Shown: positions 36,974 to 42,937 of the stretch, one piece after another
Layout: every line of letters begins with the position of its first letter
How positions within the stretch are numbered: position 1 is the stretch's first letter
Source: Candidatus Uhrbacteria bacterium
Lineage (GTDB): Bacteria; Patescibacteriota; Patescibacteriia; UBA9934; GWF2-40-263
Direction: 5' to 3'
Length of the DNA: 64,000 bases
NCBI GenBank assembly: GCA_037131775.1
Contig: JBAXQK010000002.1
Span: forward strand, 23,472-87,471
Position numbers and translations under genes: made by a program
The notes under the pieces: model-generated
The model's input: the letters and a program-made list of their open reading frames with translations, nothing else
What the model was told of the DNA's origin: nothing
The model's database searches: none

Positions 36974-38053
36974 ATGGACGACACGAAATTCTGGATCTCC
37001 CTCGTCCGCTTTCCAAAGTTCGGGCCGGTCCGCATCAAGAAACTGGCCGCCGCCTTCCACTCGATGGAGGCGGCGTTTTCGTCTTCGCGCAATGAACTGG
37101 TTGCCGCGGGAATTGAGCCGCACATCGCGGACCAGTTCATCTTTGAACGCGCGTCGATCAACCCAGACGAGGAAGCCGCGAAGCTCGTCGCGCACAACGT
37201 AACCGCCGTGACGTTCCAGGACGACGCGTACCCTCCCGATTTGAAAACGATCTTCGATCCCCCGCCCGTCCTGTTCGTCCGCGGCGTCCTCCCCGACCCC
37301 AAGCGCGTCCACCTCGCCGTCGTCGGCACGCGCAAGCCGTCGCAGTACGGTCTCCAGGTCACGCAGGAGTTCGTCGGTCCGATCGCCAAAAGCGGCGTCG
37401 TCATTGTCAGCGGACTCGCGTACGGCATCGACGCAGCGGCGCACGAGGCGACACTCGAGGCGGGCGGCACAACCGTCGCGATCCTCGGCGGCGGGCTCGA
37501 CGACGACAACGTCTATCCGTCCCAGCACCGCGCCCTCGCGTCGAGAATCGTCGCCGGCGGCGGCGCGGTCATCTCCGAGTTCCCCGTCGGCACCCACCCC
37601 ATGCCGCAAAACTTCCCGTTCCGCAACCGCATCATCGCCGGCATGACCCGCGGCACGCTCGTCACCGAGGCCCTGATCAAATCGGGATCGCTGATCACGG
37701 CCCGCGTCGCCATCGAACTCGGCCGCGACATCTTCGCCGTCCCCGGCTCGATCCACGCGCCGATGTCGGAGGGACCGAACAATCTGATCAAGACGGGCTC
37801 GTTCCCCGTGACGACGCCGGAGGACGTGCTATCGCGTTTGGGAATGGTCGTCCGCGAGACGAAGCCGGATTACGTCCCGGGAAGCGCGGAGGAAAAGACG
37901 GTGTACGACGCGCTGACGCGAGAGCCGCTGCACGTCGACGAGCTGACCGTCGCAACGGGGATGGAGCCAAAAACGATTACGTCGACGCTGACGCTGATGG
38001 AACTGAAGGGCTCGGCGCGGCATTTGGGCGGGCTGTATTACGTGAGGGGATAA
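36974..38053 (+). CDS. dprA: DNA processing protein DprA (Smf)
   Basis: A Rossmann-like DprA core (VVSGLAYGIDAAAHEA...GSLITA) and a C-terminal winged-helix-like domain are present. Confidence 0.85.
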   Translation: MDDTKFWISLVRFPKFGPVRIKKLAAAFHSMEAAFSSSRNELVAAGIEPHIADQFIFERASINPDEEAAKLVAHNVTAVTFQDDAYPPDLKTIFDPPPVLFVRGVLPDPKRVHLAVVGTRKPSQYGLQVTQEFVGPIAKSGVVIVSGLAYGIDAAAHEATLEAGGTTVAILGGGLDDDNVYPSQHRALASRIVAGGGAVISEFPVGTHPMPQNFPFRNRIIAGMTRGTLVTEALIKSGSLITARVAIELGRDIFAVPGSIHAPMSEGPNNLIKTGSFPVTTPEDVLSRLGMVVRETKPDYVPGSAEEKTVYDALTREPLHVDELTVATGMEPKTITSTLTLMELKGSARHLGGLYYVRG

Positions 38054-38069
38054 TTTAAAATGCAATCGT

Positions 38070-38321
38070 ATGTCTGAACAAACTCCCGGAACAGAATCAG
38101 ATCGCGCGTTCGACGCAAAGCTCGAGGCGTTCTATTCCAAAGGCGATTGCATCGCAATGATCAAACACGCGAAGGCTCAGGGGATCGACCTCCACGCCTT
38201 TCCGCGATACGACAGGCGGATACGCGGAGTCATCCAAAGCTATCGCGAAGAGGAAGGCATGGAGCATGAGGCAGACGAGATCGCGGGCGCGTACGGCATT
38301 TCAGACGAGAAAACCCCGTAG
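38070..38321 (+). CDS. hypothetical protein (83 aa)
   Basis: Followed by its own intrinsic terminator. No family recognised. Confidence 0.4.
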   Translation: MSEQTPGTESDRAFDAKLEAFYSKGDCIAMIKHAKAQGIDLHAFPRYDRRIRGVIQSYREEEGMEHEADEIAGAYGISDEKTP

Positions 38322-38326
38322 GGACC

Positions 38327-38360
38327 AGGACGCGCCATAGGTGGCACGTCCTTTTCTTTT
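38327..38360 (+). terminator. intrinsic terminator
   Basis: Hairpin AGGACG-n14-CGTCCT followed by TTTTCTTTT. Confidence 0.5.
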
Positions 38361-38433
38361 ACATCGACTCCAAAATTGAAAACAAAAATACGGCCCGTCG
38401 TGAGACGAACCGCGAAGACAATCGAGCAAAGAT

Positions 38434-38820
38434 CTAGGTCAGCCACTCCAGACAGGTAAGTTCTCTCCAGATCCCGCGGGCCTCCTCGTCCCAGAACTCC
38501 GGATCATGGCTTGTCTCCTCAAGAAAATCCTCGAGGGAAAACTCGCCAAGAATGCCAGGGTTGTGGCTCCAGTAGCCCGCTCGCTCAAGGAGAGGAAATA
38601 CCTTGTAGTAGATCCACTCGTAGGCGCTCTTCGCCTCCTCCTTCTGGTCATACCACCGTTCCTCCGTCATCCACAGGAAGGCCGGCGTGCGCCTCCACAT
38701 GGCAGGCGCGAGTTCGCCTCGATCCGTATGACGGATGCTCTTCCTCCGTTGCTTTTCGTTCTTTGACACGTTCGCTCCGTTCGCCCTAAGGCGGTTTGAG
38801 TTCGACGTGCTTGTGATCAA
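38434..38820 (-). CDS. hypothetical protein (TTG start in track; alternative ATG start at 38700)
   Basis: Trp/Glu-rich and acidic. No family recognised. Confidence 0.35.
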   Translation of the reverse strand: MITSTSNSNRLRANGANVSKNEKQRRKSIRHTDRGELAPAMWRRTPAFLWMTEERWYDQKEEAKSAYEWIYYKVFPLLERAGYWSHNPGILGEFSLEDFLEETSHDPEFWDEEARGIWRELTCLEWLT

Positions 38821-38918
38821 TCATTCTGCCTCCATCGCGCGGCTCGACTTGGATCGTCGAGCGGCGGGATAAAAGGGGGAGCCGGCGGGCGCTCCCCAGG
38901 GGATGTTCGCGGTTCTTG

Positions 38919-39311
38919 CTACCAGCAGCGCGCCTCGTAGGGAATCTCGTGCAGCGCTTCCAGCCAGTACATTTCCTCCTCGAATGTAGTGGCCCAGAGA
39001 TCGTTCTCGCAATCGTCTGCCCAGATTTCAAGGGCCAGGACGGTCGCGAAGACTTCGCGCTCTGGTTCTGACGAGCGGCTCAGGCGCTCCAGGCTCTGTT
39101 GGACGTTGTCACCAATGCCGTAGTCCAGGCCCAGGTGGTATTGGACCCACCCGTCTCGCGGCTGGCTGAGCTCGGCCCCAATCTTGTGGTAGATGACGCA
39201 CAGCGCCCTGTTGAGCGCTCTCTCCGCCTCTTCGGCAGGATCGAGTACGGTGCGCGCCTCCTGGGTGGAGGTTCGGATCGAGACGCGGCCCTGCTTGCTT
39301 ACTTTTGACAT
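38919..39311 (-). CDS. hypothetical protein (130 aa)
   Basis: An AAGGAG Shine-Dalgarno lies 5 nt upstream of the ATG. A candidate TTGACA -35 sits about 100 nt upstream. No family recognised. Confidence 0.5.
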   Translation of the reverse strand: MSKVSKQGRVSIRTSTQEARTVLDPAEEAERALNRALCVIYHKIGAELSQPRDGWVQYHLGLDYGIGDNVQQSLERLSRSSEPEREVFATVLALEIWADDCENDLWATTFEEEMYWLEALHEIPYEARCW

Positions 39312-39436
39312 GTGCTCCTTCGCTAGCCGGACGGGATGTCCTCGCTAGTCGATGGTTGCTTTTTCATGATGCCTCCGGATGAAATCGTTCGCCGAGGCTA
39401 TCACGATTTTGCGACTTTGTCAATCGCGCGTGCCAA

Positions 39437-39460
39437 AGAAAAAAGACGGCGAGTGCCGTC
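39437..39460 (-). terminator. intrinsic terminator (minus strand)
   Basis: On the minus strand, hairpin GACGGCACTCGCCGTC is followed by TTTTTTCTTTG. Confidence 0.6.
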
Positions 39461-39627
39461 AGCGTGCCTTGTACTCGAGTTCAAGGCGCTCGATGCGCGC
39501 GCGGTACTTACCGGTCTCTTCCTCGGCCTCCTTGACCGCCGCGCGGATATCCTGACCATGCCACGAGGTCGGAGGGACGTCGACGCGTTCGTACGCAGCC
39601 GGCACGCGTGCGAGACCTCGAACCATG
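39459..39627 (-). CDS. small hypothetical ORF (about 56 aa, basic/acidic helical)
   Basis: Reads MVRGLARVPAAYERVDVPPTSWHGQDIRAAVKEAEEETGKYRARIERLELEYKAR and ends in the terminator. Below the track size cut-off. Confidence 0.3.
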
Positions 39628-39659
39628 TCAGGCCCCTTCCATTCCGCCCGGAGGCGCAG

Positions 39660-39828
39660 TCACAACTCGTTTCCACTCAGCTCGACGACATGTCCGTAAA
39701 GATGGTCTCCATGAAGCTGCGCGATCCCGGTCCAGAAGTACGATGACTTCTTGGAAGCATCCGCACCGATGGGAAAATACCAACCGGGCGCAGGCGCGCC
39801 CTTGATCTCGAGTGGCATAACGTTCTCC
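39660..39828 (-). CDS. small hypothetical ORF (about 55 aa)
   Basis: Starts MPLEIKGAPAPGWYFPIG... The upstream sequence TTCTGAAGGAGAAC, containing an AAGGAG Shine-Dalgarno, is identical to the context upstream of the gene at 40523. Confidence 0.3.
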
Positions 39829-39908
39829 TTCAGAACGCGTCGAACCTATCATTTTTTTATAAGGCCGTCAACCTTGCTGGGGGCCGGAGATTTTCACTAA
39901 GCCACTAT

Positions 39909-39931
39909 GAAAAAAGACGGCGAATGCCGTC
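39909..39931 (-). terminator. intrinsic terminator (minus strand)
   Basis: On the minus strand, hairpin GACGGCATTCGCCGTC is followed by TTTTTTCAT. It overlaps the stop of the upstream gene. Confidence 0.6.
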
Positions 39932-40523
39932 AGGGCGAGTCGGGCACGGAACGCTCGAGGGTGAATCGTCCGTGGTCGATGGCAAGGACCGTCGTGTCGG
40001 AGATCCGGATCCGTTCGGCCTTGTCCGCCATCTCGGTGCGGAGAGTCGTGACGAACGCGGCGTAGAGCGTGCGGATGCGATCGACGGTGAGATACTGGTA
40101 CATCATCTCGATCGTTGAGCGCGAAGCCTCGCAGATCTCGTCGTCGACTTCGGCCGGATCCGGCATCAGGTCGTATGCGAGCACGACCGGAACGGGATCA
40201 TCCACGATGTCACGGACCTCGTCCATTGCCTTGAGCCAGAGCGCGGCAAGCTGTCGGCACCGAAGGTCGGCCTGCTCTTCCGCGACACGCTGCCGACGAA
40301 GCGGCCGCGACACCCCTCCGACAATCGCGTCGATCAGCGGCTTTACGCCGCGTTCCGCAACGGTGACAGCGAGGAACCCTCCGAACATCAGCGCGATCTT
40401 TGCCCGGTCCTCGAGCGAAACCGGCTCGCGCTCCTGCTGCGCAACCAAGTCCTTCGCCACGCCCCGGGGAACATACCCCGCAAACCGCTCTCCCACTTTC
40501 GCCTTATCGAACGTCGCTCGCAT
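39930..40523 (-). CDS. hypothetical protein (about 197 aa)
   Basis: Start reassigned to MRATFDKAKV, which has an AAGGAGA Shine-Dalgarno 6 nt upstream. No family recognised. Confidence 0.5.
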   Translation of the reverse strand: MRATFDKAKVGERFAGYVPRGVAKDLVAQQEREPVSLEDRAKIALMFGGFLAVTVAERGVKPLIDAIVGGVSRPLRRQRVAEEQADLRCRQLAALWLKAMDEVRDIVDDPVPVVLAYDLMPDPAEVDDEICEASRSTIEMMYQYLTVDRIRTLYAAFVTTLRTEMADKAERIRISDTTVLAIDHGRFTLERSVPDSP

Positions 40524-40595
40524 GTGTTCTCCTTCAGAACTCCCACACTGCATCATTTTTTGACAAAACCGTCAATCCACGGCATTATCTGTCGC

Positions 40596-42878
40596 ATGCC
40601 ACACACACTTGTCATCGTCGAGTCTCCGACGAAAGCGAAAACGATTACGAAGTTTCTTGGGAAGGACTACAAGGTCCTTTCGTCTTTTGGTCACATCCGC
40701 GACCTTCCCGCGAGCAAGACGGGCGTCGACGTGAAGAACCATTTCGCGCCGACCTACGTCGTCCCCGACAAGGCGAAGGATCACGTGAAGGAACTAAAGA
40801 CGGCTGCGAAGGGGATGACGGACATTATCCTTGCGACGGACGAAGACAGAGAGGGAGAGGCCATCGCGTGGCACATTGCGGAAACGCTTGGGCTTGATCC
40901 CGAGACGGCGAAGCGGATTACGTTTCACGAGATCACGAAGACGGCGATCGACCATGCGATTTCCGCGCCACGGACGATCGACATGAACCTGGTGAACGCG
41001 CAGCAGACGCGGCGCATCCTGGACCGTCTCGTCGGCTACGAGCTGTCGCCGTTTCTCTGGGCGAAGGTCCGTCGCGGCCTGTCCGCAGGTCGCGTGCAGT
41101 CCGTCGCGCTGCGCCTCGTCGTCGAACGCGAGCGCGAGCGACTCGCCTTCAAGATCGACGAGTACTGGACGATCGACGGAGAATTTCAGAAGGACGGAGT
41201 CGCCTTCCCGGGCGCGCTATTTTCGATCGACGGGAAGAAGGTGGACAAGCTCGACGTGAAGACGGGCGATGACGCGGCGAAGATCGTCGCGACGCTTTCC
41301 GGGCAGAAGTTCGAGGTGACGAAGATCGAGACGAAGGAGGTTTCGAAGAACCCGCCCACCCCGTTCACCACCTCTTCCCTGCAGATCGAGGCAAACGGAC
41401 GGCTCGGGTTCGGCGCGAAGCAGACGATGACGCTGGCACAGAAGCTGTACGAGACGGGACGCATCACCTACATGCGTACCGACTCGGTAAACCTTGCGAA
41501 CGCGTTCCTCGACGAGACGCAGGCGTACGTCGCCTCCGAGTTCGGAAAGGCATACGCCGTCGGATCAAAAAAATACGCGACCAAGGCGAAGGACGCGCAA
41601 GAGGCGCACGAGGCAATCCGTCCGACCGACGTGACCGCGCATCCCGACTCGCTCAAGGGGACGCTCGAGTCCGGCATGTGGAAGCTGTACGACCTCATTT
41701 GGCGCCGAACCGTCGGCTCCCAGCTCCCGCCCGCGAAGGTGGAGCGCACGGCCGTCGACCTCGACGCCGCGAAGCACTCCTTCCGCGCCAACGGCAGCAT
41801 GGTGAAGTTTGATGGGTTCATGAAGGTGTATCACGCCTCGCAGGAGAAGATCCTCCCGACGCTCGCCGTCGGCAACGCGGTGGACGTCACGTCCGTCGTC
41901 CCGACCCAGCACTTCACCGAGCCGACCGCGCGGTATTCCGACGCGACGCTCGTGAAGGCCATGGAAGAGTTCGGCATCGGGCGTCCGTCGACCTACGCGC
42001 CGACGATCGCGACGATCGAGGCGCGGCAGTACGTCGAGCGCGACGACAACAAGAAGCTTTTCCCGACGGACACGGGAATGATCGTGAACGACGTGCTCGT
42101 GGAGCACTTCCCGAATGTCGTCGACTTCGGCTTCACCGCCACGATGGAGAACACGCTCGACGAGATCGCCGAGGGAAAAGTCGAATGGGTCCCAACGCTC
42201 GAGGCGTTCTACGGGCCGTTCCACTCGCTGATCGAGGAGAAGGTCACCGGCGTATCGCGCGAGGACATCATGAAGGAACGGATCCTCGGCGACGATCCGA
42301 AGACGGGAAAGCCCGTCATCGTCCGCTCCGGCCGCTTCGGCCCGTTTGCGCAGCTTGGCGAGTGGACGGCGGAGGATAAGAAGGCAAAGGTCCCGAAGCC
42401 GAAGAGCGCGTCGCTGCCGAAGGGCGCGAACATCGACACGGTGACGATGGAGGAAATTCTCCCGCTGTTCGAGATGCCGCGCGTGGTCGGAAAGACGGAG
42501 GCGGGCGAGGAAATCGTCGCGCACCTTGGACGCTTCGGCCCGTACCTCAAGACCGAGACGCTCACCGCATCGCTTCCTCCGGACTTTAACCCCGGAACGA
42601 TCTCGGAGACGGACGCGCGGTTCGTCCTCGCCAACAAGGAGGCGCTCAAGGCCAAGCAGATGGCCCCGATGGCCGACCTCGGCGCGGGCCCCGACGGCAA
42701 ACCCGTCGTCATCCGCAACGGCCGGTTCGGCCCGTACCTCACGGACGGGACCACGAACGTGTCCGTCCCAAAGAAGCTCGACCCGATGGAAATCACACTC
42801 GACGTGGCGCTCGCCATGCTCGAGAAGAAACGAACGTCGCCGCCGCGTGTCTTCCCAAAGAAAAAGTCGAAAACGTAG
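40596..42878 (+). CDS. topA: DNA topoisomerase I (type IA) with C-terminal RFGPY/RFGPF repeat domain
   Basis: The Toprim N-terminus (LVIVESPTKAKTI) is present. The C-terminus carries four GRFGP(Y/F) repeats. Confidence 0.95.
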   Translation: MPHTLVIVESPTKAKTITKFLGKDYKVLSSFGHIRDLPASKTGVDVKNHFAPTYVVPDKAKDHVKELKTAAKGMTDIILATDEDREGEAIAWHIAETLGLDPETAKRITFHEITKTAIDHAISAPRTIDMNLVNAQQTRRILDRLVGYELSPFLWAKVRRGLSAGRVQSVALRLVVERERERLAFKIDEYWTIDGEFQKDGVAFPGALFSIDGKKVDKLDVKTGDDAAKIVATLSGQKFEVTKIETKEVSKNPPTPFTTSSLQIEANGRLGFGAKQTMTLAQKLYETGRITYMRTDSVNLANAFLDETQAYVASEFGKAYAVGSKKYATKAKDAQEAHEAIRPTDVTAHPDSLKGTLESGMWKLYDLIWRRTVGSQLPPAKVERTAVDLDAAKHSFRANGSMVKFDGFMKVYHASQEKILPTLAVGNAVDVTSVVPTQHFTEPTARYSDATLVKAMEEFGIGRPSTYAPTIATIEARQYVERDDNKKLFPTDTGMIVNDVLVEHFPNVVDFGFTATMENTLDEIAEGKVEWVPTLEAFYGPFHSLIEEKVTGVSREDIMKERILGDDPKTGKPVIVRSGRFGPFAQLGEWTAEDKKAKVPKPKSASLPKGANIDTVTMEEILPLFEMPRVVGKTEAGEEIVAHLGRFGPYLKTETLTASLPPDFNPGTISETDARFVLANKEALKAKQMAPMADLGAGPDGKPVVIRNGRFGPYLTDGTTNVSVPKKLDPMEITLDVALAMLEKKRTSPPRVFPKKKSKT

Positions 42879-42885
42879 CAAGAAA

Positions 42886-42912
42886 AGAACCCGATGGGGT
42901 TCTTTTCATTTT
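42886..42912 (+). terminator. intrinsic terminator after topA
   Basis: Hairpin AGAACCC-GATG-GGGTTCT followed by TTTCATTTT. Confidence 0.55.
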
Positions 42913-42937
42913 CGACGATCTGTACTACTCTGGACGG

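Follow-up and report, generated by a model that had tools for sequence, protein, structure and literature searches.

According to the general concept of flexible islands, also called hypervariable replacement loci, the content of certain regions between core genes is swapped among strains by homologous recombination in the flanking sequences. Bacteria of the candidate phyla radiation (CPR) have tiny genomes in which a large fraction of the genes lacks a known function, and to our knowledge gene gain and loss are poorly documented in these organisms. Smaller units of exchange have been described in phages. The promoter-early stem-loop (PeSL) cassettes occur in the hyperplastic regions of T4-type phages (PMC2839356; PMC4122927). 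In the comparison of the phages RB49 and phi1, for instance, ORFan192 is flanked by two modules in one phage, whereas its relative contains a single chimeric module (PMC2839356). Phage morons, on the other hand, are independent transcription units that are inserted between two adjacent prophage genes (PMC3594210). Here, the spacer between dprA and topA in a genome of Candidatus Uhrbacteria (Patescibacteria/CPR; assembly GCA_037131775.1, contig JBAXQK010000002.1) is compared with these systems. The whole stretch that was analysed (positions 23,472-87,471 of the contig, 64,000 nucleotides (nt)) is referred to as the window, and coordinates are those of the window unless a relative is named.

The island comprises all sequence between dprA and topA (38054-40595, ~2.5 kb). 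On the left it is bounded by the conserved dprA gene (36974-38053, plus strand), whose product matches PF02481 (DNA_processg_A, E = 1.6e-72) as well as DprA_WH, and on the right by the conserved topA gene (plus strand, from the ATG at 40596 to 42878), whose product matches the Pfam families Toprim, Topoisom_bac (PF01131, E = 2.5e-127), and Toprim_C_rpt. The wider neighbourhood reads der, pth, dprA, topA, relA, and parB. This spacer is probably a chromosomal hyperplastic region, i.e., a strain-variable island of autonomous cassettes with five orphan genes and their predicted expression signals. The initial annotation, which was made from the sequence of the window alone, had proposed an insertion of small genes between dprA and topA with one plus-strand and at least four minus-strand open reading frames (ORFs), and this is what was found, with A on the plus strand and B to F on the minus strand. 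The five minus-strand ORFs as read (B, C, D, E, and F) amount to four genes, D and E being two parts of a gene named ED. The cargo of the window therefore consists of A, of B and C (which share a basic motif and the presence of an upstream ORF), of a broken ED, and of F. In the deposited annotation, the island proteins WCO25_01155 to WCO25_01180 are all listed as "hypothetical protein" of Candidatus Uhrbacteria bacterium.

The relatives used for comparison are labelled L001-L024 and are all metagenome assemblies. The closest relatives by DprA (94-96% amino acid (aa) identity) are all metagenome-assembled genomes of Candidatus Uhrbacteria; a scan of the JGI metagenomes with DprA returned no close relatives. 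TopA is likewise 96-99% identical in the close relatives, and the flanks are 87-92% identical at the nt level among the close strains compared, yet the gene sets between them differ. At least eight configurations were observed at the dprA-topA site, which is the variability that characterizes a flexible island. The window carries A, B, C, ED (broken), and F. L001 and L015 carry B, G, ED, and F, and L002 carries B, G, a lipoprotein-like gene of 186 aa, a fragment of A, ED, and F. L011 contains a 131-aa gene, whose product has a hydrophobic segment at the N-terminus, together with A and F; L017-L019 contain B', G, and ED without F; L020 contains B', G', and ED; L021 contains C and ED without F; and in L003 an ED-like gene directly follows dprA. 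In the more distant Uhrbacteria-like L004 and L005 (DprA 51-54% identical), dprA and topA are direct neighbours, which bears out the adjacency on which the idea of an insertion had been built. Orthologues of the island genes are found in relatives at this very site; none of them has a housekeeping annotation, however, and the content of the site varies between strains, so that only the first of the two signs named beforehand as speaking for an ordinary housekeeping locus was found. Cargo and flanks are moreover discordant: between the window and L021, ED is 97% identical, but the topA of L021 is 99.6% identical to that of L017 and 90% identical to that of the window. The B gene of the window is 93.5% identical to that of L002, 79% to that of L001, and 50% to the divergent allele B' (L017, L020), and C is 48% identical to G at the nt level.

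Most of the cassettes would be composed of a putative extended -10 promoter, a strong Shine-Dalgarno (SD) site, a small ORF, and a terminator hairpin. ED and F end in a shared hairpin, CTGACGGCA(C/T)TCGCCGTC, that is followed by six T residues (T1' after ED, 39439-39462, minus strand, CTGACGGCACTCGCCGTC then T6, z = -3.0; T1 after F, 39910-39933, minus strand, CTGACGGCATTCGCCGTC then T6, z = -2.9), and T1 is kept after F in L001, L010, and L002. The TGA stop codon of both genes forms part of the hairpin stem, and GACGGCnnnnGCCGTC is present in exactly two copies in the 64 kb, within a 25-nt repeat that is 96% identical. Gene A is followed by the terminator-like hairpin AGGACGCGCCATAGGTGGCACGTCC and the U-tract TTTTCTTTT (38327-38361, plus strand, -19.1 kcal/mol, z = -3.3), B by a ten-pair stem and the U-tract ATTTTTGTTT (38380-38413, minus strand, z = -2.3), and C by a hairpin with a weak U-tract (38866-38897, minus strand, z = -1.0), which forms the conserved right boundary of the slot that holds either C or G. 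The initial annotation had counted three terminators, two of them with a common hairpin; the common hairpin is indeed there, but the number of terminator-like sites is five, of which the one after C is weak.

The ribosome-binding site (RBS) context that had been seen to be duplicated is an exact 15-nt repeat, GTTCTGAAGGAGAAC, at 39822-39836 and 40526-40540, to which shuffled sequence gave 0.13 matches on average when up to two mismatches were allowed. This repeat is the 3' end of a 50-nt direct repeat (37 of 50 positions identical) with a TTGACG -35 box and the spacer/-10 region AAAAAATGAT. The first copy is the putative promoter and RBS block of ED (39822-39871, minus strand; TTGACG, 17 nt, TGaTAGGTT, then GTTCTGAAGGAGAAC) and the second copy is that of F (40526-40575, minus strand). 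A further putative promoter, proposed from sequence and conservation, precedes the C/G slot (39395-39423, minus strand; TTGACA, a 17-nt spacer, TGaTAGCCT), and near-identical copies of it precede C (window, L021) and G (L001, L002, L017, L020). SD sites, start contexts, and terminators are kept across strains, and Rfam and tRNA scans detected no RNA element at the island. As had been suspected at the outset, the locus is made up of small genes that bring their own predicted expression signals and that separate two genes found next to each other in relatives.

The boundaries of gain, loss, and replacement coincide with repeated regulatory sequence or with a duplicated dprA 3' end. F is flanked on both sides by the 50-nt promoter/RBS block, and the F-less L021 and L017 have a single block, the left part of which corresponds to the topA-proximal copy (GGATTGACGGTTTTGTCAAAAA) and the right part to the ED copy (TAGGT...TCGA.GCGTTCTGAAGGAGAACGTT). 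Such a chimeric block is the pattern that would be expected from recombination between direct repeats or from its reverse. In the C/G replacement, the window ceases to be homologous to L001/L002 at 39371, in the SD site of the upstream ORF, and homology resumes at 38906, which is located 12 nt past the stop codon of C and just before the terminator hairpin; the swap of C and G lies between a conserved promoter and a conserved terminator. In L011, a 74-nt direct repeat of the dprA 3' end (95% identical; 1954-2027 and 2710-2783, corresponding to 832-905 and 76-149 of the reverse complement) flanks the inserted 131-aa gene and looks like the footprint that a site-specific or Campbell-type insertion has left at the dprA end. 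The cassettes may hence have been gained, lost, and swapped by homologous recombination at the regulatory repeats and the conserved flanks. An exact 12-nt direct repeat, AAAACGATTACG, at the dprA 3' end (37970-37981) and the topA 5' end (40638-40649) brackets the whole island as well, and it was judged to be probably due to chance, since ~0.2 such repeats would be expected in the 2.8 kb that were searched and KTIT is encoded by both copies.

An exchange of cassettes by recombination would resemble that of the PeSL cassettes and morons of phage genomes, of which the PeSL system is the closest analogue described and the morons a second one. As in the PeSL systems, small orphan genes are flanked by composite intergenic modules of an upstream stop codon, a stem-loop terminator, a sigma-70-like promoter, and an SD site. 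This composition is found at 39822-39933 (T1, the putative ED promoter, and its SD site) and at 39395-39462 (T1' and the putative C/G promoter). The cassettes bring their own predicted expression signals, and the gene between two modules in one genome faces a single chimeric module in another, here with F in the window and L001 and none in L021 and L017. The differences are that the modules lie between housekeeping genes of a bacterial (CPR) chromosome instead of in a phage, that each repeat has two copies in 64 kb as compared with ~50 per phage genome, that the stem-loop is located upstream of the promoter and not within it, and that there is no sequence similarity to PeSLs. F, like the island as a whole, also recalls a moron in being dispensable and in placing small genes with predicted promoters and terminators between genes that are adjacent in relatives; it differs in that it lies outside any prophage, has no viral relatives in the databases scanned, and has almost the composition of the flanks. 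With flexible islands the locus shares the same position in all strains, discordant and deeply divergent alleles, flanks that are ~90% identical, and the lack of dedicated mobility genes. In contrast to those, it is very small (1.6-3 kb among the complete islands compared) and contains only small-protein genes that are predicted to be monocistronic, among which no glycosyltransferase, restriction-modification, or defence function was recognized, and its breakpoints are situated at internal regulatory repeats and not at the flanks alone. Two integron-like arrangements were considered and rejected. An integron cassette array does not fit, with no integrase nearby and with cassettes that carry promoter-like sites of their own, and recombination at the shared hairpin in the manner of attC does not fit either, as the 16-nt perfect stem-loop with its T-tract is a terminator that is too small and too perfect (attC sites measure 57-141 bp).

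A strain-variable island of hypothetical genes is a well-documented and ordinary kind of feature, and no established view is overturned by it. What is neat here is an architecture that reveals the mechanism, along with a few new small protein families. The locus provides a compact and well-bounded case of strain-level gene turnover in a CPR lineage, in which the breakpoints, namely the regulatory repeats and the duplicated gene end, can be read directly from the sequence.

Several points weigh against the reading as an island of autonomous, exchangeable cassettes. The relatives being metagenome assemblies throughout, some of the mosaicism could be due to chimeric assembly. The promoters were recognized from conserved TTGAC(A/G)-N17-TAGxxT motifs that a consensus scanner does not call, B has no recognizable promoter, and the terminator after C is the weak one. 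With only two copies of each repeat in 64 kb, the repeats do not form a genome-wide family like the PeSLs, and the similarity of the promoter/RBS blocks could reflect a single old duplication and not ongoing recombination. The F event may have been either an insertion or a deletion. Furthermore, dN/dS ratios (nonsynonymous over synonymous substitution rates) below 1 everywhere are equally compatible with merely relaxed constraint, and a role of the genes in conflict has no direct support, as the family searches returned neither defence-system homology nor enzymatic domains.

The island reading is nonetheless the one that we consider probable, and it carries some tentative corollaries. The proteins evolve fast, are orphans, have deeply divergent alleles, and are encoded in some strains but not in others, which suggests a dispensable function; with low confidence they may be seen as cytoplasmic accessory factors that are non-essential and subject to diversifying or relaxed selection. 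If a single guess is made about their role, conflict or a strain-specific interaction (with a phage, a host, or a competitor) would be the most plausible one, again at low confidence. In a bolder version, which strikes us as rather unlikely, a mechanism like that of the PeSLs, for which T4-type phages are so far the only described case, would operate in a CPR chromosome. The terminator-promoter-SD modules and the duplicated gene end would then serve as portable recombination sites, single small genes would move in and out of a hotspot beside the transformation gene dprA, and deeply divergent alleles of new families (B, C, and G with their upstream ORFs and MSKxSK motif, ED, and F) would be maintained and would act in strain-level conflict with phages, hosts, or competitors.

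F (39930-40523, minus strand, 197 aa, WCO25_01180) is transcribed divergently from topA. Its family consists of eight protein clusters among 5.8 billion proteins, and F adjoins topA in all cases with a known flank; among the close strains, some have F and others (L017-L019 and L021) lack it. In the F-less strains, ED occupies the promoter position that F uses beside topA. In the window, the F promoter block overlaps the topA promoter face to face: the -35 box of F (40570-40575, minus strand) faces that of topA (40560-40565, plus strand) at a distance of 4 nt in the region 40547-40588. The topA promoter-like site (40560-40588, plus strand, TTGACA-17-CATTAT) is the sole promoter called by the consensus scanner in the island. 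The AlphaFold2 model of F has a mean predicted local distance difference test score (pLDDT) of 79, with residues 80-190 confident and residues 40-80 poorly defined; it gave no fold match and no structural match in BFVD, and a similarity to the HU/IHF fold was rejected by hhalign. The dN/dS of F is 0.33-0.6. That such genes are lineage-specific but functionally core, with for example F (or ED where F is absent) regulating or partnering topA or dprA from the common divergent promoter region, and with the variability due to nothing but rapid drift of small proteins, is in our view clearly unlikely, and a set of exchangeable accessory cassettes is preferred.

The island could also be the remnant of a prophage or integrative element whose morons or cargo were integrated at the dprA 3' end. 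The moron-like layout, in which each gene has its own predicted promoter and terminator, points in this direction, as do the 74-nt duplication of L011, which an integration at a gene 3' end would leave, and the orphan and strain-variable genes. However, no integrase, transposase, tRNA, or phage structural gene is present at or beside the island. Scans of IMG/VR with F, ED, C, and B returned no relative, tblastn of F and ED against the GenBank phages gave no match, and PHROGs gave nothing significant for any product. The GC content of the island (0.588 as compared with 0.611 for the window) is almost that of its surroundings. Finally, ED and F have been resident at this position down to L022 (DprA 72% identical), and ED lies beside dprA in the more distant L023. 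A prophage origin is quite improbable on this evidence, and the chromosomal island of cassettes is to be preferred over it.

The selection analysis bears on the question of whether the island genes are genes at all. By the Nei-Gojobori method, their dN/dS values are 0.2-0.6 (dS 0.4-1.1), as compared with 0.03-0.07 for the flanking genes (0.06-0.07 for dprA and 0.03-0.06 for topA), and their dN is ~4 to 15 times that of the flanks at similar dS. The reading frames are maintained and free of frameshifts at 45-60% aa identity. Searches with A-F and with the cargo genes of the relatives found nothing significant in Pfam, NCBIfam, PHROGs, and PADLOC, and the family profiles of B, C, G, and F found nothing below E = 0.03 among the PDB sequences; the earlier statement that no product is recognizable was thus correct as far as these family libraries go. 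The sole real match among the cargo genes of the site is in L022 (1070-1537, minus strand; DprA 72% identical), where a 155-aa protein has a PaaX_M/Cas2-like domain. It may be argued that the ORFs are non-functional, being either ORFs that arose by chance in a GC-rich spacer or pseudogenes in decay: high GC gives many spurious long ORFs in all frames, no product has a known domain, and ED is broken in the window. The maintenance of the frames at such divergence, the dN/dS values, the confident AlphaFold2 models obtained from shallow alignments, and the conservation of SD sites, start contexts, and terminators across strains make this very improbable. The island genes are real, because their dN/dS is 0.2-0.6, they contain no frameshifts, and their models are confident (pLDDT 89 for ED and 79 for F). 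In this way, the locus defines three or four families of small orphan proteins, which are under selection, confidently folded, and match nothing known.

ED (39459-39818, minus strand) spans 119 codons with an in-frame TGA at 39660-39662 in the window genome, which divides it into E (39660-39818, minus strand, 52 aa) as the upstream half and D (39459-39626, minus strand, 55 aa) as the downstream half. The two ORFs lie 33 nt apart, and they are in the same frame since their start codons are 192 nt apart. ED is uninterrupted (109-119 aa) in at least eight relatives, among them L001, L002, L010, L017, L020, L021, and L022. A profile search among 5.8 billion proteins found eight clusters (P0009-P0016), all of 109-119 aa, and when 1.84 billion representatives were searched exhaustively with HMMER, 11 proved to be true members (105-119 aa); a few long matches to repetitive FN3-type proteins were spurious. 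The nearest allele, that of L021 (98% identical at the nt level), reads GAGTTGGGACTG where the window reads GAGTTGTGACTG, so that a single G-to-T change converted the Gly53 codon GGA of L021 into the TGA of the window. AlphaFold2 predicts the L021-type ED as one compact domain (pLDDT 89, predicted template modelling score 0.80) with strands at residues 12-16, 26-36, 39-50, 53-61, and 76-79, a helix at 63-70, and a long C-terminal helix at 92-118, and codon 53 falls within the beta-sheet. The dN/dS of ED is 0.3-0.6 in comparisons with the window and up to 0.95 between the most distant alleles. Considering the common frame, the intact ORF of the relatives, the GGA/TGA difference, and the single domain, E and D are therefore halves of one recently broken gene that was inactivated or split by a nonsense mutation. 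The C-terminal fragment D could still be made, as an ATG and an SD-like GGAAGGGG are retained. The two tiny ORFs had been described as lying below the cut-off of the gene caller, but both are present in the deposited annotation (WCO25_01170 and WCO25_01175), where they are to be corrected to two halves of one gene.

The initial annotation had seen in E and D an arrangement like a two-gene module, possibly of the toxin-antitoxin (TA) type. In such a module, a small stable toxin and its labile antidote would be transcribed together from one promoter. In the window genome only, the arrangement does resemble a type II TA module: a single promoter and a single terminator enclose two neighbouring small ORFs of the same strand, separated by 33 nt, and D has kept its ATG preceded by GGAAGGGG. 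Yet E and D form a single in-frame ORF in every full-length homologue, the split being confined to the window allele, and no pair is conserved. The structure prediction that had been suggested as a check gave one fold for the intact ED with the stop inside it, and neither homology to nor the fold of a known toxin or antitoxin family was detected. A TA module is contradicted by these findings, and we give it very little credence. The codon UGA is read as Gly in Gracilibacteria and Absconditabacteria. The TGA of ED stands where the closest allele has the Gly codon GGA, and ED would be intact in the window if this TGA were recoded (as Gly under code 25, or as selenocysteine) or read through, but this is hardly credible at all: with code 11, 90% of the window is covered by non-overlapping ORFs of at least 120 aa, TGA acts there as a normal stop codon and ends 11 of 43 long ORFs, F and ED themselves stop at TGA inside terminator hairpins, the GGA allele does not differ from the window in the sequence 3' of the TGA, so that no element like a selenocysteine insertion sequence has evolved with it, and GGA is one of about eight sense codons that are one substitution away from TGA, which makes the coincidence unremarkable.

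ED is a broken gene in the window, and its family is wider than this island. Distant homologues were found in L023 (5001-5336), where the gene is convergent with dprA and has no topA nearby, and in L024 (1068-1394), where it lies between a PF04020 membrane-protein gene and rplJ. With such homologues outside the clade, ED is an older small CPR protein family that is not confined to the island.

B (38434-38769, minus strand, 111 aa, GTG start, WCO25_01160) and C (38919-39311, minus strand, 130 aa, WCO25_01165) belong to a group of genes with a common N-terminal motif. The product of B corresponds exactly to the deposited protein, its orthologues are found in L001 and L002 and its divergent allele B' in L017 and L020, and its dN/dS is ~0.2. 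The C family is limited to just four protein clusters among 5.8 billion sequences, and its slot is taken in other strains by G, a gene of 165-180 aa. By hhalign, C and G align with a probability of 96% (E = 1.5e-9, 28% identity over ~100 columns). Given this homology at a shared slot, C and G are best read as very divergent alleles, that is, distant homologues, between near-identical regulatory flanks.

The basic motif MSKxSKxxRxS[IV]R[TR] is shared by B (38725-38769, minus strand), C (39267-39311, minus strand), and G (L001, L002, L017, L020), with the consensus M/V-SK-x-S/E-K-xx-R/K-x-S-I/V-R across the three; it reads MSKxEKxxRKSIR in B and MSKxSKxxRxSIRT in C, and within the 64-kb window it is confined to these two genes. 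The first 20 residues of the three proteins have an isoelectric point (pI) of ~11, and the bodies are acidic and rich in Trp, with a pI of 4.3-4.8 (in B, pI 10.9 for the first 20 residues and 4.5 for the remainder, which contains 8 Trp). Beyond this motif, profile comparison detected no relationship of B to C or G.

Each B, C, and G gene is preceded by an upstream ORF (uORF) of 12-14 codons with the strong SD site GGAGGC (window, L001, L002, L017, L020, L021), the TAG stop codon of which is located 11-16 nt ahead of the main start codon. The uORF of B (38786-38824, minus strand) has 12 codons (MIDHKHVELKPP*) and ends 15 nt before the start codon of B. Its peptide MIDHKHVELKPP ends in Pro-Pro-stop, and it is identical or nearly so in the window, L001, L002, and L020, also where identity in the body of B falls to ~50%. 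The uORF of C (39323-39367, minus strand) has 14 codons (MKKQPSTSEDIPSG*), with its TAG 11 nt before the start codon of C; between the uORFs of C and G, length and position are kept and the sequence is different. It may reasonably be inferred that these uORFs couple or control the translation of the downstream gene. In the predicted folds of the C and G leaders, the main SD site pairs with sequence within the uORF, with weak fold statistics: the C leader has z = -2.5, and the leaders of B and G fold no better than shuffled sequence, because of which a structural switch is not claimed.

Gene A (38070-38321, plus strand, 83 aa, WCO25_01155) is probably co-transcribed with dprA because it starts 16 nt past the dprA stop codon without a promoter of its own. 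An orthologue is found in L011 (67% aa identity, dN/dS 0.25), and L002 retains a 3' fragment. In L002 (9449-10211), the 5' half of A is replaced by the 186-aa gene, which encodes a lipoprotein-like signal (…LLLAIAC…), and the 3' fragment of A remains downstream together with its terminator.

Turnover in this lineage also extends to the other side of topA. In L001 (7790-8200), and likewise in L015 and L016, an extra orphan gene of 94 aa is located between topA and relA and has its own promoter-like site, SD site, and terminator-like hairpin, which makes it a further moron-like example; the empty site in the window is 42879-42937. The topA-relA spacer is a second single-gene insertion site in the lineage.

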